Shown here one piece after another: positions 2,004 to 59,124 of a stretch of 64,000 nucleotides of DNA. The stretch is taken from positions 2,432,001 to 2,496,000 of the forward strand of contig CAWJET010000001.1 in NCBI GenBank assembly GCA_963842085.1, given 5' to 3'. How positions within the stretch are numbered: position 1 is the first letter of the stretch; each line of letters opens with the position of its first letter. The notes beneath the pieces were generated by a model. It saw nothing but the letters and a program-made list of their open reading frames with translations, searched no databases and was not told the origin of the DNA. This DNA is from an uncultured delta proteobacterium. GTDB taxonomy: Bacteria > Desulfobacterota > Binatia > Binatales > Binataceae. The translations under genes and the position numbers were made by a program.

Positions 2004-3377
2004 TTACTGAGTGATGGTTTCCATGACGCGGCCGCTCGCACCGTCAACGATATTGACCTCGACCGGCGCCGAAATGTTGTTGTCTTTCTTGGCGCTGTCG
2101 ATGCCCGCCTTCAGATCGGACAGGAACTTGTCCTTGGCAAACGGCGGCATTTGATCCATCGGAAAGTTGTCCATCAGGACCTTGGCCTTGAACTTGTCGG
2201 GCCACTCGACGGAGCCGACTTTTGGTCCCGCAACCGGCAAGCCTCGCACCATCTGCTCGATAGCACCGTGAAAATCCTTTGCACCAGCCGCTGGCGCCGC
2301 CGCGGGCGCGCCGGAGGTTTGCGCCACCATCGCGGCTGACGCAGCGGGAGCGCCCGCCGCCGCATTCTGCGCCGCCGGCGCAGCGGCAGGCGTCGCCGAC
2401 ACCGCCTGCATCGACGCGCTCGCGGCCGGCGCGCCGCTGAACTTTGCGATCAGATCCTTCACCTGGCTGCGCGCAGTATCGTCCGGCGCGAGCGCCAGCG
2501 CTTGCTTGAGCGCGGCCGCCGCGTCATCGGGCTTGTTCTCCTGCGTGTACGCGATCCCCATGTTGTAGTACGCCTGGAAAAATCCGGGCTTGGCGGCGAG
2601 CGCTTTCTTGTATTGCACGATCGCCTGATCGGCGTTGCCGGTGTAGAGGTACATCGTGCCGAGGTCGGTGCGAACTTCCGGATCGTCCGGCTTCTTCTTC
2701 AGGTAATGCTCGTACGCGGCAATCGCTTCGTCGTAGAGCTGCTTGTCGTAGTCGATGTCGCCGATGCCGCGCAGCGCGTCGAGGTTGTCCGGCTCCAGCT
2801 TCAGCACGTGGCCGTACGCTTCCTCGGCCTTGCCGTAGTAAGTTTGATCGAACATCGCCGCGCGCATCGAGACGGCGCCGAATTTGTTCCATGCCGCGAC
2901 GTCGCGGGGTTTCGCGAGCGCGTCTTTTTCGATCTTGTCGACAAAAGTGCGAGCTTCGGTCGGCAGCTCGATCGTGGGATGTCCCGGCGGCAGACTGCCG
3001 TTCTGACTTCCACCAGCCGCGGGATTTGCTGTGACATTCTGCGGCGCGGCCGGGTTGGGCGCGACACTGCCCGGATTCAAAGCGGGCGCGGCGGCGCTCG
3101 GTGCGTTGGCGACGGGTGGCGCAACCGCGATTTGTTCGCGCACCACTTCGGGGGTGCGCAGATATATCCATCCGGCCACAGCCAGGCACGCCACGGCGAG
3201 CGTGATGAACACGGACGCAAACGCCGTCGTGATCGTTGTGCCGCGTCCGCGAGCCGCGCTGACGCCGCCCGATTCTCCCGCGCCCGATGCAGCGGCGTCG
3301 AGAGCGCGGCCGCATTCCACGCAGAACTTGGCTCCGGCCAGCAGGGGCGCTCCACATTGCGGACAAAATCGCATCAT
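2004..3377 (-). CDS. Zinc-ribbon, TM and TPR protein
   Basis: FCPQCG...FCVECG double zinc ribbon, one TM helix, LPPGHP motif, several TPR repeats; start is one of several adjacent codons. Confidence 0.8.
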   Translation of the reverse strand: MMRFCPQCGAPLLAGAKFCVECGRALDAAASGAGESGGVSAARGRGTTITTAFASVFITLAVACLAVAGWIYLRTPEVVREQIAVAPPVANAPSAAAPALNPGSVAPNPAAPQNVTANPAAGGSQNGSLPPGHPTIELPTEARTFVDKIEKDALAKPRDVAAWNKFGAVSMRAAMFDQTYYGKAEEAYGHVLKLEPDNLDALRGIGDIDYDKQLYDEAIAAYEHYLKKKPDDPEVRTDLGTMYLYTGNADQAIVQYKKALAAKPGFFQAYYNMGIAYTQENKPDDAAAALKQALALAPDDTARSQVKDLIAKFSGAPAASASMQAVSATPAAAPAAQNAAAGAPAASAAMVAQTSGAPAAAPAAGAKDFHGAIEQMVRGLPVAGPKVGSVEWPDKFKAKVLMDNFPMDQMPPFAKDKFLSDLKAGIDSAKKDNNISAPVEVNIVDGASGRVMETITQ

Positions 3378-3494
3378 CAAATTCCTACATGACCCGTTCG
3401 TTCCAGCGCAACACGCCCCGGATTCGGGTTCCCGCGCTTGAGGCGCCTGATGTATAGTCCCGCTCGCAAGTCTAATTGTGCGAGGTAACCGGCC

Positions 3495-18941: not shown

Positions 18942-19015
18942 TGCCTTGAATGGTTGCGCGAAAGTCTCTTAGAATCGCGCCTTGACGCTTCGAATTGTCT
19001 GCCCAGAAGGAACCA

Positions 19016-19882
19016 ATGGGGATCGAGTTAAAGAAGTTCGACACCAGGCTGCAGGCCGAGGGACCCGAGGTACGCCATCTCGACCCCGCCGCAGCGCCGT
19101 TCTACCTGCCGATTAGCGACGAGGTGGAAATCTTCACCGCCGCCTACAAGGCGCGACTGCCGTTGCTGCTCAAGGGACCGACGGGATGCGGCAAGACCCG
19201 CTTCGTCGAGCACATGGCGCATCAGTTGTCATCGCTCGCCAACGGCCCCAATGAGCTGATCACGGTTGCGTGTCACGAGGATCTCACCGGCAGCGACCTG
19301 GTCGGCCGCTTCCTGATCCAGGCCGACGAGACGGTTTGGGTCGACGGTCCGCTGACACAGGCCGTGCGGCGCGGCGCGATTTGTTACCTGGACGAAGTGG
19401 TCGAGGCGCGCAAGGACACGACCGTGCTGATCCATCCGCTGTCGGATCACCGGCGGATTCTGCCGATCGAAAAGCGCGGCGAGACGATCGAGGCGCACGA
19501 CGGATTTCTGCTGGTGATTTCGTATAACCCCGGCTACCAGAGCATCCAGAAAAACCTGAAGCATTCGACGCGCCAGCGCTTCGTGACGATCGAGTTCACC
19601 TATCCGCCGGCGGACAAGGAAGTCGAGATTATCGCGCACGAGGCAGGCGTCGAGCAGGATATCGCGTCGCAACTGGCGGTGCTGGGCGAGAAGGTGCGTC
19701 ATCTTAAGGCGTCGGGCCTGGAGGAGGGCGTTTCGACGCGCCTGTTGATCTACGCCGGTGAACTGATCCGGCAGGGGATTGCGCCGCGGCGCGCGGCGAC
19801 GGTCGCGGTCACGTGGTCGCTGACCGACGAAGCCGACAGCAAGCGCGCGATCGACGAAGTGGTAAAAGCGATCTTTCCATAA
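19016..19882 (+). CDS. CbbQ/NirQ/NorQ family AAA+ ATPase
   Basis: [60 protein letters not shown]. Confidence 0.93.
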
Positions 19883-24758: not shown

Positions 24759-25058
24759 TTAGGGATGTGGAGTGATCGCCAGGATCGTCATTTGCCCAGT
24801 TTTAGGACCATAGCAGAAGAAGACTCGAAAAGCCGCGGGCGTCCTGTTCTCTGCATACGCCTCAAAAACTTTCTGGCCTTGCGGACCGGAAAGCTTCGAG
24901 TACTCATGCGTATTTAAGCTCGGATGGCGAGGGTTCATTTCTAAGAGGCCGAGTGTTTTCTGAACGGCGCGAAGTCGCTTGCCGGCACCGGGATCTTTCG
25001 ACAGCAGCGCAAGCGCGTCTCGTGCTGATGGCGTGAAAACCAGGCGAAACTTCCCCAC
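24759..25058 (-). CDS. RelE/ParE-superfamily toxin-like protein
   Basis: 99 aa, basic; FT..A, NPRHPSL.TH, FEAY, RVF, I.AITPHP; downstream of an acidic-tailed partner. Confidence 0.75.
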   Translation of the reverse strand: MGKFRLVFTPSARDALALLSKDPGAGKRLRAVQKTLGLLEMNPRHPSLNTHEYSKLSGPQGQKVFEAYAENRTPAAFRVFFCYGPKTGQMTILAITPHP

Positions 25059-25069
25059 CGGACCTTCCC

Positions 25070-25408
25070 CTAGTCAATCTCGTCGTCTGCATATTTTTCG
25101 AACGATCCCACGTCCATCAGTTTTCCTTCGCGCGCCTCCTCCAAGCCTCTCACGACCATTTTCAGCGCTTCAGGGTTGCGGTACAGCCAAAGTTCGTGCA
25201 TCGGCACTGAAATCTCTGGTGAGAGCAACACTTGCCCAGCGTCGTTTACGTAGATGCCAAATCGGATCGCTGGGTCCAATTCGCCTCCGAGGATTTGCTT
25301 CAAGGATTCCAACGTCTTCGCCAGCGAGACCCGTTTTCGTTCATCGAGTGATGCTTCGCCGATTCGTTTAAAGCTGTCGTTCAATACCGCGGTCGCCATC
25401 TGTGCCAT
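25070..25408 (-). CDS. Putative antitoxin (AbrB/MazE-like N-terminus)
   Basis: AGGAG RBS; LDERKRVSL, P..ELWL..NPEA....RGL..A..GK, acidic C-terminus. Confidence 0.7.
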   Translation of the reverse strand: MAQMATAVLNDSFKRIGEASLDERKRVSLAKTLESLKQILGGELDPAIRFGIYVNDAGQVLLSPEISVPMHELWLYRNPEALKMVVRGLEEAREGKLMDVGSFEKYADDEID

Positions 25409-25432
25409 CTCTGTTTCTCCTATTGCGTCGAC

Positions 25433-25447
25433 TGTTACGACGTAACA
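25433..25447. promoter_or_regulatory. Palindromic operator upstream of TA operon
   Basis: TGTTACG-A-CGTAACA perfect inverted repeat 25 nt before the antitoxin start. Confidence 0.6.
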
Positions 25448-25491
25448 ATGGGGATAATATTCAAATGCAACAATGAGCCAATAAGCTAAAC

Positions 25492-25707
25492 GTGTCAAAT
25501 GTACCGACTACCCCTCTTAATGCCGCTCGACTTGCAAAACACCTTGAGATTACGCGCGAAGCTGCGCGACTGAGGCTTCAAAAAGCCGCAAAAGCCGGCT
25601 TGATCTCGCGAATGGCTAACGGGCGGTATCGGACGCGGAAACCGCAAGAGTCAAAGGCCGACGCGATGTTATCTAGGATACAGGAGGGCGAGACAGTGGA
25701 AGAATAA
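25492..25707 (+). CDS. Small winged-HTH-like protein or remnant
   Basis: LNAARLAKHLEITREAARLRLQK...GLI HTH pattern. Confidence 0.45.
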   Translation: MSNVPTTPLNAARLAKHLEITREAARLRLQKAAKAGLISRMANGRYRTRKPQESKADAMLSRIQEGETVEE

Positions 25708-25836: not shown

Positions 25837-26421
25837 CTATTGGCTGGAGCGGTCGGCCGCCTTTTGCGCGGCTGCGGCCGCTGCCGCCGCAGCGGCGCGG
25901 GTCTGCGCGGCTTTTTCCATCGCGGCCTGGCGCTTCTCGCCGCGTGCGAGATTCTGGTTCATCTGCTTGGCGCCCGCTATCCCGAGGTCCTGCGACTCCC
26001 ACTTGGGCTTCGCTACGGAGACCCATTTCCCATCGTCAAGCGCGTAGGTGAAGACCAAATACTTGAGCTTGCCGGTGGCGAGGCCCTTGGCGGTGCCGCC
26101 TTTTTTGGTCGGGTCGTACTCGACGCCGCCGAGCTTGCAGCTCACGACGAGATGATTGTGCGGGCCGTAAGTCGGCAGGTACTCGAACTTCTGCTGGAGG
26201 TCGATGTATATCTGCCCCTTGCCTTTCTTTTCATCCTGCTCGTCAAAATAAGGCTCGGCTACATCCGAAAGTTTATCCTGCAGCGACTGCTCCAGGGCAG
26301 GCGTGAGGTCCTTTTGCGCGCGCGCGTGCCGCAAGTCCACCGCATGTGCAGGCGGCGCCTCGAGCGAAAACGAAAGCGCAGCCGCAAGGGCGACCGCGCC
26401 GAGTATCCTGAGATTTTTCAT
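25837..26421 (-). CDS. Secreted hypothetical protein, last gene of the exbB operon
   Basis: Signal peptide MKNLRILG...PAHA; Ala-rich C-terminal helix. Confidence 0.8.
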   Translation of the reverse strand: MKNLRILGAVALAAALSFSLEAPPAHAVDLRHARAQKDLTPALEQSLQDKLSDVAEPYFDEQDEKKGKGQIYIDLQQKFEYLPTYGPHNHLVVSCKLGGVEYDPTKKGGTAKGLATGKLKYLVFTYALDDGKWVSVAKPKWESQDLGIAGAKQMNQNLARGEKRQAAMEKAAQTRAAAAAAAAAAQKAADRSSQ

Positions 26422-26468
26422 GACGTCCCGGCCACCATCATAGTAGACGATTGGCCGGGCGCAAATAT

Positions 26469-27689
26469 TTACGGGCTGGAGCTGCTGTTGTTCAGCCCGC
26501 GCCCAAAGGCTGCGACCTGCGACTGCCATTGATCGCCGAACGCGAGGATCAGCACCTGCTGGTTGATGTGCGCGTCCTTGGTCAGCGACTTCATCGAGCC
26601 GCCACCAGCCGTCGCCAGCACTTTGTACGCCGCCTGCGTCTGCCGGTAGAACTCCGGCAGCGGCGAGATCTTCGGCGGCTCCTCGCGATGCACCTTGAGC
26701 CAGAACTCGCGCTCGAAACGCTCGTGCTCTTCAGCCGCCACGTCCACCGTGTTGAAAGTGCCGTTGTTGGTCTTGAACTGGCGGATCAGCGCCAGCAGCG
26801 GTCCGAAGTCCTCCTTATGCGGCGGCGAATCGCCCACCAGCACCACCACCTTCTTGGCGTACGGCTTCCAGTCCATCTTGTTGATTGCCGTCTGACACGC
26901 GCCAAAGGTGTCCTCTTCCCATTCACCGCCGCCCATCGCCTGGATGCCGTTAAGGAAGGTGCTCAGTTTTTGCGGCGACAAGGTCAGCGGCTGGATATGC
27001 ATTGGCTCGCCTTGGCCGCCGAACACGATTATTCCAATTCGCGCGATCGGCACCAGCCGGTGAATCGACTGGACCAACTGCTCCATCTTGGCCTTGACGT
27101 CGTCGATGATCAGTTTCATCGAGCCGGTGCCGTCGATCACCAGCACCACGTCCAGTCCCTTGCGCCGCAGTTCGCCGATAAATCCGCCGAAGCCCGAGCC
27201 GATGCCGTGGCCGTAGCCCGAGCCCATGCCGCCGCCGCGGCCGATGCCGATACCGCCGCCGCCGGCGGCGCGCACGTAGTCGCTGGCCAGGCCCACCGCC
27301 TGCGACGTGTCGACCGCGGTCGGCTGCTCCATCTGCTGCGGCGCCGTGTCGGGCATCGGCACTTCGGGCATGTCGAGATCCTGCATCTCGTTGCCGCCCC
27401 CGCCGCCGCCGCCTGCCTCCAGGTTCACCATGATCAACTCGCGACCCCGCTGCTCGTGCACCGTGATGATCAGGAACAGCAACGCCAGGACGTGAAGGGC
27501 GACCGAGAGGGGAAAGGGCCCGATCAGCAGACCGAGCGCATCTCTCATCTTCTGCAGACGGGTCGCGTCCGCTTCGTCATCGTCGCGGCGCGCTTCGGCC
27601 TCGAGCTCTCGTTTGCCGATTATGCGGTAGAAGATGAAAGCGACGACGAACGTCGAGAGGACGAGCAAAATTATAATTGCTGCGATCAT
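26469..27689 (-). CDS. Membrane-anchored vWA-domain protein with TonB-like anchor and linker
   Basis: Two TM helices, the second with SVALH; Pro- and Gly-rich linker; MIDAS-type DGTGSM; LVGDSPPH. Confidence 0.85.
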   Translation of the reverse strand: MIAAIIILLVLSTFVVAFIFYRIIGKRELEAEARRDDDEADATRLQKMRDALGLLIGPFPLSVALHVLALLFLIITVHEQRGRELIMVNLEAGGGGGGGNEMQDLDMPEVPMPDTAPQQMEQPTAVDTSQAVGLASDYVRAAGGGGIGIGRGGGMGSGYGHGIGSGFGGFIGELRRKGLDVVLVIDGTGSMKLIIDDVKAKMEQLVQSIHRLVPIARIGIIVFGGQGEPMHIQPLTLSPQKLSTFLNGIQAMGGGEWEEDTFGACQTAINKMDWKPYAKKVVVLVGDSPPHKEDFGPLLALIRQFKTNNGTFNTVDVAAEEHERFEREFWLKVHREEPPKISPLPEFYRQTQAAYKVLATAGGGSMKSLTKDAHINQQVLILAFGDQWQSQVAAFGRGLNNSSSSP

Positions 27690-27812
27690 ATAGAAACGTG
27701 CTCCCCGCTTGGGCCACGCTTGACGGAGCGGCCGAGGCCGAGGTCCTTATACATTAAGTTTAAGGCCGCGCGGTCTCCGCGGCAACGCGTGATTCCTCCA
27801 AAAGTCAAATTC

Positions 27813-28277
27813 CTACGCTCCGCCGCCCGGCGCTGGCGCACCACCGCCGCCGCCGCCAGGAGGTAGCGACGACACCGCGATCGCGATCGCCTCCGCGCCC
27901 GCCGACTTTGCCACGTCCAGAATACGAACCATATCACCAAGTATAACCTTTGGGTCACCCTGGAAAATCACTATTTTGTCGGTCGAATTCTGGAGCGCGT
28001 CATGAAGCTGCGGCATCAACTCGGGCTCCGTGACCTGCTTGTCGTTCAGATAGATCAAATGGTCGGCGGTGTAAGTGACAATGATGCCCTTGGGCTTTTC
28101 GTTTGGCGCGGTCGAAGCTTCGGCCTTGGGCAAATCGACGTGCGCCGCAGACTCGATTGTCACAGCCGTCGTCACCATGAAAATGATCAGCAGGACCAGA
28201 AAGATATCGGTCAGCGGGGTGATGTTGATATCGGCGAACACCCCGCCGCCCTGGTTTTTACTCATTGCCATGTGCAA
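27813..28277 (-). CDS. exbD: ExbD/TolR family protein (copy 2)
   Basis: DINITPLTDIFLVLLIIFMVT, VDLP, GD. Confidence 0.92.
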   Translation of the reverse strand: MHMAMSKNQGGGVFADINITPLTDIFLVLLIIFMVTTAVTIESAAHVDLPKAEASTAPNEKPKGIIVTYTADHLIYLNDKQVTEPELMPQLHDALQNSTDKIVIFQGDPKVILGDMVRILDVAKSAGAEAIAIAVSSLPPGGGGGGAPAPGGGA

Positions 28278-28326
28278 ATACCTCTGCGGGTGTCGATGCT
28301 CGGGTCAGCCACGGCGGCCGGCCCGC

Positions 28327-28773
28327 TCAACCTCCGGCACCCGACGAGTTGGCTAGTTGCGCACCCGTAACCCGCTTGGCCGCGATTGCAATTTGCGAGG
28401 CTCCGGCAGCCTTGGCAATATTGAGGATCCGTACCATGTCACCGAGCAGCACTTTGCGATCGCCCTGAAACACGACGATCTTCTGGTCAACCTTGCCCAA
28501 CGCGTCGGCCAGACTGGAGCGGAGTTCGCGCTCGGGAACGTCCCTGGAGTTCACGAACAGCTCGTGCTGGGCGGTGTAGGTCACGATGACGCCCTTGTTC
28601 TCGGGCGCGGTGTTGGTCGCGGTCGGCAGATCGACGTGCGCGGCGGACTCGATGGTGACCGAAGTGGTCACCATGAAGATGATCAGCAGCACCAGGAAGA
28701 TATCGGTCAGCGGCGTGATATTGATGTCGGCGAAAACGCCGCCACCGCTGGTATGCGGTCCGCTAATTGCCAC
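28327..28773 (-). CDS. exbD: ExbD/TolR family protein (copy 1)
   Basis: DINITPLTDIFLVLLIIFMVT, GD...G.MV.IL..AK.AG. Confidence 0.92.
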   Translation of the reverse strand: MAISGPHTSGGGVFADINITPLTDIFLVLLIIFMVTTSVTIESAAHVDLPTATNTAPENKGVIVTYTAQHELFVNSRDVPERELRSSLADALGKVDQKIVVFQGDRKVLLGDMVRILNIAKAAGASQIAIAAKRVTGAQLANSSGAGG

Positions 28774-29404
28774 GCGCCTGTCTCCCCTGGAGTACTGCGT
28801 CGATCAGGCGGTCGTCATTGATGTGCTGGATGGCGCTGATGTTCTCAACCTTGACTGAGAAATAGTTGTAGAAGATAACCGCGACGATCGCGACCGCGAG
28901 TCCAAGCGCCGTCGAAATCAACGCTTCCGAAATACCGGCCGCGACGACCGAGAAACCGCCGGTGCCCATGATTGCCATCGATTGGAACGCCACCAGAATG
29001 CCGACGACCGTGCCGAACAGCCCGATGAACGGCGCCGACGCGCCGGCGGTTGCCAGCACCCAGATGTAGCGCTTGAATTCGAGACCTTCCTGGTAACGGC
29101 GTTCGTCGTCGAGCTCGAGCAGATGATCGCGGTCCATCGTCTGCGAACCCGAAATCAGGGTGTGGTAAATGCGCTCGGCCGCGGTGGCGCGCGCCTGGGT
29201 CGCCTGCAACGCTTCGTTGATCTTGCCCTGCCGCAGTTGGGGAATCAGCGAGTCGGCCAGCTTGGCCGTCTTGGGTCCGACACCCCACAGCGCCCAGACC
29301 CGTTCGAAAATGATTGCCAGGCAGACCACCGAAATGAAGAGCAGGGGATACGTCGCGTAGTAGCCCTGCTGAATCATCGCCAGAATACCGAAGTTGCTTT
29401 GCAT
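28763..29404 (-). CDS. exbB: MotA/TolQ/ExbB proton channel protein
   Basis: APFIGLFGTVVGI, GISEALISTALGL.VAI. Confidence 0.93.
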   Translation of the reverse strand: MQSNFGILAMIQQGYYATYPLLFISVVCLAIIFERVWALWGVGPKTAKLADSLIPQLRQGKINEALQATQARATAAERIYHTLISGSQTMDRDHLLELDDERRYQEGLEFKRYIWVLATAGASAPFIGLFGTVVGILVAFQSMAIMGTGGFSVVAAGISEALISTALGLAVAIVAVIFYNYFSVKVENISAIQHINDDRLIDAVLQGRQARGN

Positions 29405-29728: not shown

Positions 29729-29914
29729 TTGAAGCATCACTTAATCTACGCCATTGTCAATGCCGGCGACTACCGCAAACCGGTCCCCGACGGCACCGCC
29801 GGCGCAACTCGTCGCCTTGACTTCTTGGTCCCTCACGTCTATCCAGAAGCTTGTCAGGCCACGCCGCAGGTTGACCGCGATGCGGTCATTATTTTTTTGG
29901 CGATTGACGCTTGA
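29729..29914 (+). CDS. Possible small protein (61 aa)
   Basis: TTG-start ORF with partly coding-like GC3 bias directly upstream of the lipoprotein gene; no recognisable motif. Confidence 0.3.
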   Translation: MKHHLIYAIVNAGDYRKPVPDGTAGATRRLDFLVPHVYPEACQATPQVDRDAVIIFLAIDA

Positions 29915-29943
29915 GAAATCTGTACCCACCATGTCTTTTGACG

Positions 29944-30510
29944 ATGAATAGTCCCGGTCTGTTCATTCGGGCTGCGCTGGCCGCCGCGTGCGTGCTCGGA
30001 TTCGCCGCTTGCAAAGCAAAGCCGGTGGTTGCTCCCGTTGCACCTCCCGTCGTGCAGGTTTCGATGACCGCGCCGGATGAGCCCACCAACGCATTGCCGC
30101 CGGACCTGTACAAGGCGATGCCGATATATCCAGGCGCCGCGATCGACCATGTCCGCAAACCAAAAGGTGCGATGCGCGAGATTCTGTTCATTTCCAACGC
30201 CTCGATGCCGCAGATGGTTGCCTACTACAAGGACGCGCTGAAGAAGGGTGACTTCCACATCACCTCGTCGCTCATCATGCCGGCGCGCAGGACCTGGTCG
30301 TGCGATTTCAACTACGATGGGCGCCCCGGCAGCCTCATGCTGTACCCGAGCGATCAGGATAAGTCGAAGATGACGATCGATCTCATCTACGAGCTGCCGG
30401 CGCATATGGACGAATCCATGATGGAACCCCAGGAAAAGTTTGACATAGAAGGACCGGGCGAAATGGCCCAGCAAGCACCAAATCCCACGGAGAAAGAGAA
30501 GAGGAATTAG
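29944..30510 (+). CDS. Lipoprotein of unknown function
   Basis: Lipobox FAAC; P.YPGA...V.YY...L...G pattern. Confidence 0.75.
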   Translation: MNSPGLFIRAALAAACVLGFAACKAKPVVAPVAPPVVQVSMTAPDEPTNALPPDLYKAMPIYPGAAIDHVRKPKGAMREILFISNASMPQMVAYYKDALKKGDFHITSSLIMPARRTWSCDFNYDGRPGSLMLYPSDQDKSKMTIDLIYELPAHMDESMMEPQEKFDIEGPGEMAQQAPNPTEKEKRN

Positions 30511-49092: not shown

Positions 49093-49972
49093 TTGAAGGC
49101 GTGCGGCCTGCGTCCAGACTAAGATTCATCATGGTGGCTCCTGGAGCCGGTGTTAGCACGAACGTCGAATCAGGGATGGCGCCATTGACGATCGGCCGCA
49201 GATAACGGAACGTCACCCGGCTGCCGGACGCCGGAAAAGCCGCGTCGACGACGTACGGAAACATCACTCCGCCGATATCATGATAGTCGCTGTAACGCAC
49301 CTCGTAATTGACACGGCCGTCGGCCGCCGTTTCCCGCACCATCGCGAGATTGCCGCCCGAGAATCCAAGCTCGCGAGTCCCCGACGCGCTGTTGCCGTAC
49401 GTCGCGACCATCATCGCGCCGTCGTTCGTCACCAGGTCCGGGTTGCTATTGAGCGCGAAATCGGGCGGCGCCAGTCCCATCAGCAGACCCACGGCGTCCG
49501 TGGGCGCCATCGGGATTCGCACGTATCGGTAAAGCGTGTCGGCGGTCGCCTGTCCGCGCATGAAGCGATTCTGTCCCGGCTCGAAGATCGAAAGCTCCGA
49601 GCCCTGTGCCGCCAGCAGCAGCGCCACCCCGAACGGTGCCATCGCCTCGACCCGCAGGCTGTCCGGCTGCCGGACGACGATATCTTCCTTCGCCTTCACG
49701 TGCTGAGCGCCGGCAGTGTATTCCATGACCGCCGGGGTCTGCATCGAGGCGAGCCGTTGGTCACGCTCGGCCAGCGCCGCGATCAACCTCTGGGCTTGAT
49801 AATTGTTCTCGCTCCAGCCCGGGATTGGCGTCTCGGGCTCTGGAACTGGCGGAGTGTGTATGATGAGGCAGGCGGAAGTTTCGAGCGTCGCCAGCAGGAG
49901 CATCGATACGACCGCCGCGAGTGAGGCTATTTTTCGGCGCCGAGCGCGTTCAGTGGCCCGCGCTGGCGGCAT
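49082..49972 (-). CDS. LolA/LolB-like (DUF4292-type) lipoprotein
   Basis: Lipobox TSAC; P..LRVE...PFG; F....P.G tail; follows the TPR gene. Confidence 0.65.
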   Translation of the reverse strand: MPPARATERARRRKIASLAAVVSMLLLATLETSACLIIHTPPVPEPETPIPGWSENNYQAQRLIAALAERDQRLASMQTPAVMEYTAGAQHVKAKEDIVVRQPDSLRVEAMAPFGVALLLAAQGSELSIFEPGQNRFMRGQATADTLYRYVRIPMAPTDAVGLLMGLAPPDFALNSNPDLVTNDGAMMVATYGNSASGTRELGFSGGNLAMVRETAADGRVNYEVRYSDYHDIGGVMFPYVVDAAFPASGSRVTFRYLRPIVNGAIPDSTFVLTPAPGATMMNLSLDAGRTPSNES

Positions 49973-51719
49973 TCTGCAGGACCTGGATTTTATCCTTGAG
50001 GCGTGCGACCTGGTCGGTTTCCTGCGCTTTCTTCAGCGCGTCCGAGTATTCGTGGCCGGCTTCCTTGACCTTGCCCAGCTTGCGATACGCGTCGCCCAGA
50101 TGCTCGGTGATCGTGGGGTCGCTGCCGGTCAGGTTGACCGCCCGCTCCAGCTCCTCGACGGCTTTCTGGTAGTCGCCTTTCTGATAGTAAACCCATCCCA
50201 GGCTGTCGACATAAAATCCGTCTTCGGGCTCGATGTCGAGCGCGCGCTTGATTAGCTTTTCGGCCTCGCCGAGGTTGGTGCCCTGTTCGGCGTAACTGTA
50301 GCCGAGGTAGTTCAGCGCCTGTGCATTGGAGGGATTCAGCTCGATCGCTTTCTTCATCTCGGCCATGCCCTCGGCGCGCTGTTTGTTCTGATCGAGCGCG
50401 GCGCCGAGCGTGAAGTGGAACTTGTCGTTCTTGGGATCGGCCGCGACCATTTTGCGCGCCAGCGCGATTGCCGCCGGGTAATCCTTCTTTTCCTGGTAGA
50501 CCCCGACCATGAAGCCCATGATTTCGGCGTCGTTGGGCTTCTTGGCCAGCGCGTCTTTCAGCGCGTCCAGGGCCTCGTCGTATTTGTTCTGCTTATCGTA
50601 CAGGTAGGCGAGCTGCAGGCGCGACTCGACGTAATGCTCGTTGTCGGCGGGAATCTTGTCGAACTCGCTGATCGCCTTGTCGCTTTCTGAAAGCTCCGTG
50701 TACACCGTGCCGAGATAGTAGTGGACGCGGTAGTTGTTCGGCTCGGAGCCGAGCACGAGGTTGAACTCGGTCGCGGCGTCGTCAAAATTACCCTGCTCGA
50801 CGTACAGCAGGCCGATCTTCGTGCGTGTGTCCGCGGGATTGGTCTCGATCTGTTCGGCGCGTTTGAGCTCATCCAATGCCTGGTCGTATTTTTTCTGACC
50901 GACCAGTATTTCGGCCTTGCGCTTGCGGACCAGCTCGTTGTTCGGGTTGATTTGCGTGATCTTGTTGTAGTAGACCAGCGCGTCCTGCGGGCGGTCCTGC
51001 CGCTCGCGCAACAACGCAAAATCAAGCAGCACCAGCTCCGATTGCGGATTGAGGTCGAGCGCCTTCTGATAATATTTTTCGGCGGCCGCGTAGTTCTTCG
51101 AGGCCACCATCACTTTGCCGGCGTAGTAGTAACCGAGAAACGAATTGGGATCGAGCGTGATTAGCTGCTGAAACGTCTTCTCGGCTTCGCCGTAATCGCC
51201 GCGCTTCGCATAGAGAGTGCCGAGATAGAGATAGGCTTCCTGGTTCTTGGGATTGAGGCGCAGGACCTCCTGGTAGTCCTTCTCCGCCGTTGTGTCGTCG
51301 CCGAGCGCCGAGCTGATGCCCGCGCCGAGCAGACGGGCGTCGGCGGAATTCGGATTGATCGCCAGCGCCTGGTTAACCTGGTCGAGCGCCTCTTTCAGCC
51401 GCCCGTCGCGGACGTAGAGCGTGGCCAGCCGAACCTTCAGCGCGGCGTTGGTGGGATCGTACTGGACCGCCTCGGCGTAATCCTTGAGCGCCTCTTCGCG
51501 ATCGCCTTCATTCATCGCGAACTCGGCCTTCAGGAACGCGCTCATCGCCCGTGCGTCCGAGGGCACCTCCACCGCCGGCACGCCGCCGAAGGGATTATCC
51601 CCGCCTACGCTGGCGCTGCGGACGAGTTCAGGTTTCGCATTCGTAATTTGTGAGCAGCCGAGAAACGCGATCGACGCGGCGCCGAGCGCAATTATCGCGC
51701 GTGTGCTGAAACCTATCAT
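49950..51719 (-). CDS. TPR-repeat lipoprotein
   Basis: Lipobox FLGC; many TPRs; ALNYLGYS...DSLGWVYY...I.EHLGD. Confidence 0.92.
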   Translation of the reverse strand: MIGFSTRAIIALGAASIAFLGCSQITNAKPELVRSASVGGDNPFGGVPAVEVPSDARAMSAFLKAEFAMNEGDREEALKDYAEAVQYDPTNAALKVRLATLYVRDGRLKEALDQVNQALAINPNSADARLLGAGISSALGDDTTAEKDYQEVLRLNPKNQEAYLYLGTLYAKRGDYGEAEKTFQQLITLDPNSFLGYYYAGKVMVASKNYAAAEKYYQKALDLNPQSELVLLDFALLRERQDRPQDALVYYNKITQINPNNELVRKRKAEILVGQKKYDQALDELKRAEQIETNPADTRTKIGLLYVEQGNFDDAATEFNLVLGSEPNNYRVHYYLGTVYTELSESDKAISEFDKIPADNEHYVESRLQLAYLYDKQNKYDEALDALKDALAKKPNDAEIMGFMVGVYQEKKDYPAAIALARKMVAADPKNDKFHFTLGAALDQNKQRAEGMAEMKKAIELNPSNAQALNYLGYSYAEQGTNLGEAEKLIKRALDIEPEDGFYVDSLGWVYYQKGDYQKAVEELERAVNLTGSDPTITEHLGDAYRKLGKVKEAGHEYSDALKKAQETDQVARLKDKIQVLQNAASAGH

Positions 51720-51950
51720 CGCTAAAACAGATTCCTGGGAGAAATTCTCAATTGCGGCTAACACCACGCCATTTCGATCATCAACGCGAGGTGTCCCGCG
51801 GCTTCACCACCGTCCGCGGACCTTTGCGCATCTATTACATTACAAGATCTCCGCCATTGGATGCGACCGTGCAACCCTCATTTGATTTGAGCCCATGCTT
51901 GCCACCACGCATCGCCTCGGCTAGGGAGGGGAGCCGGAGCCGCCCCGCAA

Positions 51951-57096: not shown

Positions 57097-58174
57097 CTAC
57101 TGCTGATGCCAGCTTGCGCCGCCATCGGAGGTGACGAAACTTTTGCCGGTGGCCGCCGTGATGGTTGCGTTGTTGGCGCTGCTGGAGGACACCGCCACAA
57201 AATTTTCCGTGGTCGGAGCGGCCACGGGCGTCCAATGCTCGCCGTCCGTGGTGCGGATGACCGTTCCATTGTTCCCGACCACCCAGCACACGCTCGAAGA
57301 CGGCGCCGCACCCGCAACCAGGTCAGCGCTGACGCCGCTACGCTGTACATGCGTCCCGCCACGCGCGTCGAGTCGCCGGATCATTCCGTTCTTGCCCACG
57401 ATCCACGTGACCGATCGATCGGATGGCGAGACCGTGGCTAGCACTCCTGCCTCTACGTTGTATCCAGCACTCGAGCTCAGCGCGTTGCCTGTAACTGTCG
57501 CGCCGTATGAACCTTGCCCGCGACTGTTTGCAGTGGCGCCGCCCTGCGCGATCATCGCCCTCGCGCCGGGCGCCTCCGCGGGTTTTGCCATTCGATGGAG
57601 AAGGGTGCCGCTCATCGCCGCCGCACGAGGCACCGCTTCCGCCTTCGGTTCATTCATCGCGAGTTCATTCGATGCAGACCCGGCAACCCGCGGAGACGGC
57701 GCAGCCAGTTCAGCGGCCGGCACCGCGGCTGGCGCAGCGGGAGCAACTGCCGGCGCCGGCGCAGCGAGGTCCACGGCGGGAGCCTCATGCTTCGCCATCG
57801 CGACGACTTGGCCGCTCGGCGACTCCTCGTTTGCGGGACGCCCGCATCGCAATGAAGACGACGACGGCCGCGACTGCCGCGAGCGCGGGAACCGCGACCC
57901 GCCATCTTCGATACCACGGGACTTCAGATGCCGCGTTCGCGCCGCGCGCGCTCTCGTCAGCGCGAGCGATATCCGCCAGCAACACCTGGCATCGCATGCA
58001 ATCGGCAAAGTGCGCTTCAAGACGCTCGCGCTCCGCCGCCGACAACGACCTGTCACTGTACGCGGCGAGCGACTCTGCGTTCGCGCAGTCGGGCGTCGCC
58101 GCGTCCGGCTGCTCACGCATCGCACGGCGCAGGATCGCGTCGAGCGGCTCGTTATTTCGGTCAGCATTTTTCAC
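57097..58174 (-). pseudogene. zf-HC2 anti-sigma factor with YCF48/BNR-like C-terminus, frameshifted near 57842
   Basis: H..DC.RC plus TM in ORF 57785-58174; removing one G from ATGCGGGCG joins it to the frame with W.VG..G.., RTTDG..W, TSDGG.SW. Confidence 0.8.
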
Positions 58175-58246
58175 GGTTTCATGCTATCCGCGATTCCTTA
58201 CTCTTTGAACGAACCGCGGCCGGAAAATTGCACTGTGCGCGTCGTT

Positions 58247-58609
58247 TCATTTGACGTCCGGAAGCGCGCGCGACAGGTCGAGCTGCAAATCGCCCGCAGC
58301 CCAATCATAACACAGCTGAATCTGATCGTGGCTCAGCTTGTCGCCGTCGTGCAGCGTGTGCTCGATCTCACGCTTGAGATAGTCGCGTGTGCGTGCCAGG
58401 CGGCGCGACACCGTGGACTCATGCTCGTCCATCACGCGCCCAATTTCCTTGAGCGAAAGCTCGTGCCGGTAATAGTACGCCATCCGCATCCGGTCCCGCG
58501 GCGCGAGCGACTTAAGCGCGGCGTCGAGCGCCTTGCCCAGCATCGCCACGTAGCGGGCGCGGTCGGAGCCGGCGTCGAGCGGATCGGCCCGAAGGTCGCT
58601 GTCGCTCAC
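58247..58609 (-). CDS. ECF sigma factor, region 4 half
   Basis: AL.SL..RDR...YY...LSLKEIG......STVSR.L.R. Confidence 0.75.
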   Translation of the reverse strand: MSDSDLRADPLDAGSDRARYVAMLGKALDAALKSLAPRDRMRMAYYYRHELSLKEIGRVMDEHESTVSRRLARTRDYLKREIEHTLHDGDKLSHDQIQLCYDWAAGDLQLDLSRALPDVK

Positions 58610-59124
58610 CCAGGTTTTTCCACGTCATCGTCGAGTGGCTGGAGGCGGCTCTGAGAGCGGATATAATCGACGTGACGCTGCGCCAAAACGGCCCGCAGCC
58701 AGGTCAGGAGCGAGCTGCGGCCGTGGAAGTAGCTGAGGATCGAGCGGCGGCGGCCGTCGCGCACCTCGATGCCGTACAACTCGGCCCATAACGAATCCGC
58801 CAGTTCGCGCCCGCGCATCTCGTCGCCGGCAATCGCGCGCGCGGCGGCGTAGAGCGCCGGCCTGAAGCTGGTGATGAAATGTTCCCACGCGGCGGATTCT
58901 CCATTGCGGCACGCGATCGCCAGGCCCAGGTCTTCGGCGTGGAGCGCGCCGATAAATGATTCGACGCCGGCGCGATCGAGCACGCCCGCCGTGTGCGCGC
59001 CCAGATACACCGCGTCGTGGAGAGAATCATCGCTGATGCTCCATCGCGCGGCGCCCGCGCGTTTGCATAGACGCCCGAGGGCGCGAGCGTGCTGTGCAAC
59101 GAATTCCGGTGGCGCTTTGCTCAC
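58606..59124 (-). CDS. ECF sigma factor, region 2 half
   Basis: LHAEDL.LA.AC..G...AW..F, Y.GRSSL.TWLRAV; stops at TGA overlapping the GTG of the region 4 ORF. Confidence 0.75.
   Translation of the reverse strand: MSKAPPEFVAQHARALGRLCKRAGAARWSISDDSLHDAVYLGAHTAGVLDRAGVESFIGALHAEDLGLAIACRNGESAAWEHFITSFRPALYAAARAIAGDEMRGRELADSLWAELYGIEVRDGRRRSILSYFHGRSSLLTWLRAVLAQRHVDYIRSQSRLQPLDDDVEKPG

Follow-up and report, generated by a model that had tools for sequence, protein, structure and literature searches.

To our knowledge, TonB and TolA were for a long time the only known routes by which the proton energy of the inner membrane reaches the outer envelope. It was only in 2025 that a third type of head for such force transducers, the vWA domain, was put forward (Williams-Jones et al., Mol Biol Evol, PMC12204202). 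Members of the proposed class consist of a transmembrane (TM) helix with an SHLS motif, a disordered linker in which a motor box is predicted, and, C-terminally, a vWA domain, and their genes are neighbours of tolQ and of two distinct tolR-like genes. They are reported from Proteobacteria, Planctomycetes, Verrucomicrobia, Bacteroidetes and Rhodothermaeota, an upstream TPR gene being frequent in the PVC group but not obligatory; a role in gliding was suggested, and no deletion phenotype is reported. Here we describe an operon of this class from an uncultured Binatia soil bacterium of the family Binataceae. It comprises five co-oriented genes at positions 25837-29404, on the minus strand, of a 64,000-nucleotide stretch (contig CAWJET010000001.1 of assembly GCA_963842085.1, positions 2,432,001 to 2,496,000; hereafter "the window"). 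We interpret it as a stator powered by the proton motive force (PMF), combined with an inner-membrane-anchored TonB/TolA-like transducer that ends in a vWA domain, and we put the probability of this reading at roughly 0.6. An earlier note on this DNA, made from the sequence alone, had reached the same idea and is an independent rediscovery of the published proposal.

The Tichowtungia aerotolerans family described in PMC12204202 shares with the Binataceae operon a Ser/His TM helix, a C-terminal vWA fold, and one tolQ-like and two tolR-like genes upstream. Its linker is disordered, Pro-containing and about 100 residues long, with a short box after the helix; the Binataceae linker, of roughly 80 residues, is likewise disordered and Pro-containing and has a candidate for such a box. 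The Binataceae operon differs in that it encodes one transducer instead of two, has no upstream TPR gene, possesses an extra N-terminal TM helix in the vWA protein, and is completed by a conserved downstream gene for a secreted protein of 194 aa; the two families are compared by description. The TPR proteins nearest to the operon within the window are encoded at 2004-3380 and 49950-51767, with none beside it. PMC12204202 reports this gene order, two distinct tolR-like genes included, from an unrelated phylum, Kiritimatiellota. Binatota, the phylum of the Binataceae host, is not among the phyla listed for vWA transducers in that paper, and the term "Binat" is absent from its supplement; the operon takes the class to another phylum.

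The first three genes of the operon encode the motor subunits. The channel subunit (exbB/tolQ-like gene, 28763-29404, 213 aa, three predicted TM helices) belongs to the MotA/TolQ/ExbB family PF01618 (93.3 bits, gathering cut-off 22.9), and the two ExbD/TolR-like proteins (subunit 1: 28327-28773, 148 aa; subunit 2: 27813-28277, 154 aa) belong to PF02472 (82 and 86.9 bits, respectively, gathering cut-off 25.4). Alignment of the channel subunit with the solved TolQ/ExbB chains (9avi, 7ajq, 5sv0) reveals that two pore Thr residues are kept, one in GLFGTV and one in ISTALG. The TM Asp of ExbD is essential, and both paralogues retain it: D24 of each is aligned with D25 of the Escherichia coli ExbD chain 6tyi_Y, and subunit 2 aligns also with the ExbD chain 7ajq_F. 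The two ExbD-like proteins are 66% identical to each other, with identical TM segments. The best NCBIfam matches of the channel subunit are TolQ (107.6 bits) and ExbB (80.4 bits). Because all three motor proteins score below the NCBIfam equivalog cut-offs, they are members of the respective superfamilies but of neither classical system.

The fourth gene (26469-27689) encodes the vWA protein of 406 aa, which matches the Pfam families VWA_2 (43.7 bits), VWA (29.8 bits) and VWA_4. A hydrophobic segment at residues 2-24 (27618-27686) forms TM helix 1, which the AlphaFold2 (AF2) model, built on an alignment of 68 sequences (termed A4), extends over residues 2-34. It is followed by a charged loop of 30 residues with seven Lys/Arg (25-54) and by TM helix 2 at residues 55-78 (27456-27527), the proposed motor-docking helix, which reads ...PLSVALHVLALLFL... 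and contains S62 and H66; the codons of both residues, in the segment LSVALHVLALLFL (residues 61-73), were verified by hand on the DNA. Twenty residues past H66 lies the ELIMVNLE strand (residues 84-91, 27417-27440), a candidate "motor/stator box". The low-complexity linker (residues 83-164, 27198-27443) has pLDDT values below 50, and is disordered. Within it, a seven-Gly run (93-99) comes before the region with five Pro (106-121), followed by a Gly-rich stretch (about 141-168). The vWA domain proper (residues 165-406, 26472-27197) is modelled with pLDDT mostly above 90 over residues 170-370, and a Foldseek search of it against the PDB returned only vWA domains (Rpn10, integrin I domains, BatB 3ibs, 4jdu) with E-values of about 1e-9 to 1e-8. 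Its metal-site region includes DxTxS at residues 186-190 (27120-27134), as part of DGTGSM at 186-191; no variation is seen at D186 and E259 among the 68 sequences, and T188 and S190 are each kept in at least 90% of them. We considered a downstream start of the protein at M48 and dropped it, since the hydrophobic segment of helix 1 is kept in orthologues down to 50% identity.

The five genes are closely spaced: exbB overlaps the first exbD by 11 bases, and the following junctions are gaps of 49, 123 (second exbD to vWA gene) and 47 bases (vWA gene to secreted-protein gene). Pfam scans over 71 open reading frames (ORFs) of the window (5 + 49 + 17) detected no TonB_C, TolA, TolB, Pal or TonB-dependent receptor family, nor any CpoB, Glt or Agl family. 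No TonB family, including the TonB C-terminal domain PF03544, appeared among the Pfam and NCBIfam matches of the vWA protein at E ≤ 0.1, and TolA domain III had no match in these scans of the vWA protein or of the window. The earlier note had listed the co-oriented order exbB, exbD, exbD, vWA gene and secreted-protein gene, the lack of TonB, TolA, TolB, Pal and a TonB-dependent receptor, the S-x3-H in the second TM helix, the TM Asp in both ExbDs, and a domain with DGTGSM, and all of these agree with our results, the vWA fold being recovered by Pfam, AF2 and Foldseek alike. Its description of the linker as Pro-rich and then Gly-rich is roughly right, a seven-Gly run coming before both stretches.

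An exhaustive phmmer search of 1.84 billion representative sequences with the vWA protein yielded 3417 matches at E ≤ 0.001, some 680 of them at E ≤ 1e-10, the best 150 of which were used to count the Ser/His motif. From these, 69 were dropped (43 fragments without the DxTxSM stretch and 26 with fewer than 120 residues upstream of it), and among the 81 usable representatives 72 carry S-x3-H within a hydrophobic segment; five of the remaining nine have [AGTC]-x3-H, and four have neither. The motif persists down to about 27% identity, in many cases as RRxPW..S...H..LL, and at least 90% of the 68 A4 sequences retain S62, and likewise H66. We regard 72/81 as the fair count, because the members of another alignment (A1), in which S62 and H66 are invariant, had been chosen with the motif in view. 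Its conservation across distant relatives indicates that the Ser/His motif is not a matter of chance. A strand of alternating hydrophobic residues 14-47 residues past the His was detected in 39 of the 72 relatives versus 6 of 72 in a control region (the next 34 residues), by an ad hoc pattern of our own design that is suggestive only. The helix of the vWA protein, LSVALHVLALL, resembles LSIALHVVLL of the Colwellia TolA AAZ24973.1 (PMC12204202 supplement). With respect to taxonomy, the names of close homologues put the window in Candidatus Binatus / Binataceae, and the named relatives are Binataceae and Gammaproteobacteria: the A1 profile search gave Binataceae only, and a profile built without this family gave only names of Gammaproteobacteria (Porticoccaceae, Halieaceae), which agrees with the range given in PMC12204202. 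The extra N-terminal TM helix is confined to the Binataceae clade: P0122, P0124, P0126 and P0127 have the hydrophobic segment of helix 1, and more distant relatives lack it and have one helix.

We scanned genomes with an 11-sequence alignment and obtained, from the best 80 of 256 relatives, 79 loci, all in Binataceae. Loci whose product matches the vWA query from residue 1 were termed type A, and those matching only from about residue 48 type B; 18 loci hold a type-B gene, and 17 of them are type B by their main match. Both exbD genes and exbB lie upstream in 55/57 type-A loci with enough upstream flank, and in 50 of the 53 with enough downstream flank the secreted-protein gene directly follows the vWA gene, the exceptions to these counts being L046 and L059 (other paralogues) and L018. 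The stretch from exbB to the vWA gene contains three consecutive ExbD-like matches at one type-A locus (L009, 5987-6970), as against two at the other loci. L018 and L050, two contigs of one metagenome-assembled genome, have swapped downstream contexts: the type-A copy of L018 lacks the secreted-protein gene, and in L050 the genes for the secreted protein, the permease and the SDR, which normally stand behind type A, come after the anti-sigma-fused copy. This swap reflects either recombination or mis-assembly across a 1-kb repeat.

The orientation of the vWA protein in the membrane can be deduced from domains fused to its relatives. FHA and zinc anti-sigma domains are cytoplasmic, and relatives of the vWA protein, together with a 92%-identical paralogue, carry such domains before the helix. 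An FHA domain is located N-terminally of the S-x3-H helix in 13 of the 29 long representatives scanned, a zf-HC2 domain occupies the same position in the Binataceae paralogue P0107, and at all 18 type-B loci the helix is preceded by a sigma gene and an anti-sigma N-domain. Since the domains before the helix are cytoplasmic in these relatives, the S-x3-H helix is predicted to run from inside to outside, with the vWA head in the periplasm. For the protein of the window we infer an N-terminus on the outside, helix 1, a cytoplasmic loop, helix 2, and a periplasmic linker and head. The FHA-containing relatives (P0223, P0228, P0231, P0245, P0246, P0254, P0257, P0259-P0262, P0266, P0269) form a large branch of proteins of 570-730 aa, composed of an N-terminal FHA domain, an RRxPW..S...H helix, a linker and the vWA domain, which ties the module to cytoplasmic phospho-threonine signalling.

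Against this background the operon can be compared with the better-known systems. With TonB-ExbB-ExbD it shares the motor families, the TM Asp of ExbD, the S-x3-H helix, the extended linker and an N-in/C-out coupling helix; it departs from that system in having two different ExbDs, a vWA head and an extra TM helix, with no TonB C-terminal domain or receptor in the window. With TolQ-TolR-TolA it has in common that the channel subunit scores best against TolQ and that the coupling helix resembles those of TolA (PMC12204202 supplement), but TolA domain III, TolB, Pal and CpoB are missing from the window, and the scores stay under the equivalog cut-offs. TolQ-only loci with paired vWA proteins (PMC12204202) likewise combine a vWA head with a TolQ-like channel. 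In these, however, the vWA proteins possess a TolR-like trans-pore helix with its own Asp, no Ser/His motif and no tolR/exbD neighbour (PMC12204202), whereas in the Binataceae operon the Asp resides in two ExbD proteins and S-x3-H in the vWA protein. The Agl-Glt machinery of Myxococcus also involves a TolQR-type motor working with an envelope vWA protein, but this protein, CglB, is an outer-membrane lipoprotein rather than an inner-membrane TonB-like one (PMC9946355), and the Binataceae window holds no Glt/Agl genes. BatA and BatB are membrane-anchored bacterial vWA proteins, and the BatB structure 3ibs, together with 4jdu, is among the best fold matches; yet the vWA protein scores only 15.1 bits against the BatB model NF047506 (cut-off 350), and there is neither a Bat operon nor an adjacent MoxR ATPase. 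We know of no Bat protein described with S-x3-H. CbbQ/NorQ-type AAA ATPases are usually followed by a vWA partner, and one is encoded at 18995-19882 on the plus strand. We dropped a MoxR/vWA pairing with it, as it lies 7 kb away, is not adjacent and has an NHL-repeat protein next to it; the two are probably unrelated.

The type-B genes encode a paralogue in which the same helix, linker and vWA domain are fused to a different N-terminus. This N-domain shows an H-x3-C-x2-C pattern and reaches 24.5 bits against zf-HC2 in P0107, a match not reached in P0079 or P0086, and the gene directly before each type-B gene (18 loci) encodes sigma70 region 4. A more divergent copy, type C, again with two TM helices, is located just downstream in 11 loci (46-62% identity). 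Between A and B copies of the same genome about 1.04 kb of DNA is shared, at 96-97% in three clade-1 pairs and 86% in two clade-2 pairs (the five pairs being L013 7164-8199 vs L042 7023-8058, L019 vs L043, L012 vs L047, L036 vs L061, and L041 vs L057). The shared DNA has sharp edges, one at about codon 55, where helix 2 starts, and the other at the stop codon, with no similarity outside. Over the helix-linker-vWA part, the median protein identity of A and B from one genome is 97.4% in clade 1 (n=7) and 88.1% in clade 2 (n=4), versus 86.8% for A against A (n=28) and 83.9% for B against B (n=28) between the two clades. The B-specific sigma gene and N-domain are 48-57% identical between the clades, and in a quick tree A and B copies from the Binatus clade form one group (SH-aLRT 99). 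This pattern points to a helix-linker-vWA module that evolves in concert or has been replaced repeatedly, and it suggests that A and B have to fit the same partners. vWA-bearing anti-sigma factors are recorded for the group ECF289 (PMC7826278). A paralogue with near-identical helix-linker-vWA DNA, wired to sigma and anti-sigma functions in the same genome, is apparently new; our literature search found no description of a motor-linked/anti-sigma vWA pair, which is not proof of its being unpublished. A second sigma/anti-sigma pair, 35-37% identical to the type-B pair, is present in the window at 57097-59124 on the minus strand. Two ORFs, 58606-59124 and 58247-58609, make up its split sigma-like gene, and Sigma70_r4 is found in the second; the zf-HC2 anti-sigma ORF (57785-58174) has a long ORF in another frame (57097-58167) after it; the split and out-of-frame ORFs may be due to frameshifts or sequencing errors.

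The last gene of the operon is annotated as an ORF at 25837-26529, but translation most likely begins with the ATG at 26421, which gives a gene at 25837-26421 and a product of 194 aa with a signal peptide (residues 1-27) ending in AHA; the alignment of 28 orthologues, in which 29 columns are invariant, backs this start. Neither Pfam nor NCBIfam has a family that the secreted protein matches. Its AF2 model (mean pLDDT 83.5) comprises a helix (41-67), a sheet of four strands (72-145) and a long Ala-rich C-terminal helix (147-192) that ends in an Ala run. This fold has no match in the PDB at E ≤ 0.001, and its best score in the Atlas, 0.80, is under the level of a lead. With 41-88% identity among 27 orthologues, the secreted protein changes more quickly than the vWA protein. 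The earlier note had proposed it as a candidate ligand: the adjacency of the two genes is indeed conserved, as counted above, and it is from this adjacency that a ligand role is surmised. Another candidate envelope partner could be the product of the gene at 29911-30510 on the plus strand, which is lipoprotein-like (signal peptide, Cys after ...GFAA) and divergent from exbB over a gap of 500 bases. In 53 loci it is the neighbour of exbB; it is fast-evolving, with 46-80% identity, and no Pfam family matches it. No coding sequence lies in the 500 bases between exbB and this divergent gene; a scan for promoters and terminators returned consensus-level matches only and was uninformative, and tblastn against plasmids gave no match. 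On the other side of the operon, two small ORFs (99 and 142 aa; 24759-25498, minus strand) are situated between the secreted-protein and permease genes. They have no Pfam match at 1e-5 and a counterpart in none of the 79 loci, and represent an insertion specific to the genome of the window, with a toxin-antitoxin-like layout.

We propose the following mechanism. An ExbB/TolQ-like pentamer would surround a heterodimer of the two ExbD/TolR-like proteins, and TM helix 2 of the vWA protein would dock on the outside of the ExbB ring via H66 and S62, while the ELIMVNLE strand would engage the periplasmic part of ExbD. Proton flow would drive movement of the stator, the disordered linker of roughly 80 residues would transmit the pull across the periplasm, and the vWA head would hold an envelope partner through the DxTxS metal-site region. 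Candidates for this partner are the co-transcribed secreted protein, the divergent lipoprotein-like protein, or an unlinked outer-membrane protein. Coupling of the vWA protein to the motor appears well supported, as it fits both the logic of the sequence and the published proposal. The earlier note had viewed the operon as a PMF-driven machine with a force-responsive grip. The first part of this view matches the proposal in PMC12204202 and is in line with the three findings on which it could have failed, namely the Ser/His motif in 72/81 relatives, the periplasmic side predicted for the vWA domain, and the linkage to exbBD, kept in 55/57 type-A loci and, according to PMC12204202, in other phyla; the force-responsive grip is drawn by analogy.

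Several observations weigh against the transducer interpretation. The Pro of "AIPAV" in the solved TolQ/ExbB chains is replaced by Val in the channel subunit, and neither this subunit nor either of the ExbD-like proteins attains the NCBIfam equivalog cut-offs (TolQ, ExbB, TolR, ExbD). In the vWA domain, D287 after strand beta-4, which we take to be the last metal-site Asp of canonical vWA domains, varies between D, G and S among relatives. Our gene-neighbourhood counts cover Binataceae, where SDR, phosphatase, permease and lipoprotein-like genes also recur in 45-55 loci; as the entire neighbourhood is syntenic in the family, the linkage within it is weak evidence alone. Moreover, exbB occurs within 7 kb of the type-B paralogues, which have the same helix, in none of the 14 loci with flank, and is likewise missing within 7 kb of the type-C copies and of L059.

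An alternative view is that the vWA protein is a transmembrane sensor signalling inward, like anti-sigma factors or FHA-linked receptors, its Ser and His serving helix packing or regulated intramembrane proteolysis and the ExbBD motor energizing something else. Such a role would agree with the 18 Binataceae loci at which a sigma70 region-4 gene comes first and the helix-linker-vWA module is fused to an N-domain of the zinc anti-sigma type, with the FHA fusions, with the lack of exbB at the anti-sigma-fused loci, and with the ECF289 precedent (PMC7826278). However, the copy in the window has no cytoplasmic signalling domain, only the second TM helix and a 30-residue loop, its gene is part of an exbB-exbD-exbD operon at nearly all type-A loci, and TonB/TolA coupling is defined by the S-x3-H helix and the strand that follows it (PMC12204202). 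A sensing role of the paralogue would also be compatible with motor coupling of either copy, and we consider the sensor explanation unlikely for the protein of the window. A further reading is unlikely in our view: the ExbB-ExbD1-ExbD2 motor might serve a paralogous set of S-x3-H vWA proteins that includes the anti-sigma copy, gene conversion keeping its helix, linker and vWA head nearly identical to those of the motor-linked copy, so that both dock to the same stator and grip the same ligand; a pull on the ligand-bound anti-sigma copy would then release its sigma factor. This speculative arrangement would be a PMF-powered mechanical switch of expression, unlike FecR-type surface signalling.

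It could also be argued that the adjacency is incidental. TonB genes are often unlinked to exbBD, and the ExbB-ExbD-ExbD motor could serve a canonical TonB or TolA encoded elsewhere, with the vWA protein acting as a passive, BatA/BatB-like periplasmic scaffold or adhesin; the block-wise synteny in Binataceae and the presence of BatB among the top fold matches would fit this. A passive anchor, though, would not need S-x3-H, which is kept to about 27% identity, the BatB model is far from being matched, and the gene order recurs with two different tolR-like genes in Kiritimatiellota (PMC12204202), all of which makes a chance neighbourhood very improbable in our opinion. A functional sub-case of the transducer interpretation is a Tol-Pal-like tether or a gliding/adhesion machine, in which the vWA domain would replace TolA domain III or act like CglB, and the secreted protein would be a TolB/CpoB-like shuttle. 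The preference of the channel subunit for TolQ over ExbB, the gene for a periplasmic partner downstream in 50/53 loci and the gliding role suggested in PMC12204202 speak for it, while the absence of Pal, TolB, CpoB, Glt and Agl families from the window, the lack of any solved fold matching the secreted protein at E ≤ 0.001, and the scores under all equivalog cut-offs speak against; in this specific form we hold it to be highly doubtful. On balance we favour the PMF stator with a vWA-headed transducer.

The operon offers three experimental handles on this class of transducers: the conserved secreted neighbour, the clade-specific second TM helix, and the paralogue wired to sigma and anti-sigma functions. 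Further work would be best spent on the anti-sigma paralogue. If the helix-linker-vWA module is not motor-driven, its S-x3-H helix needs another explanation; if it is, the paralogue would couple mechanical work at the envelope to transcription.

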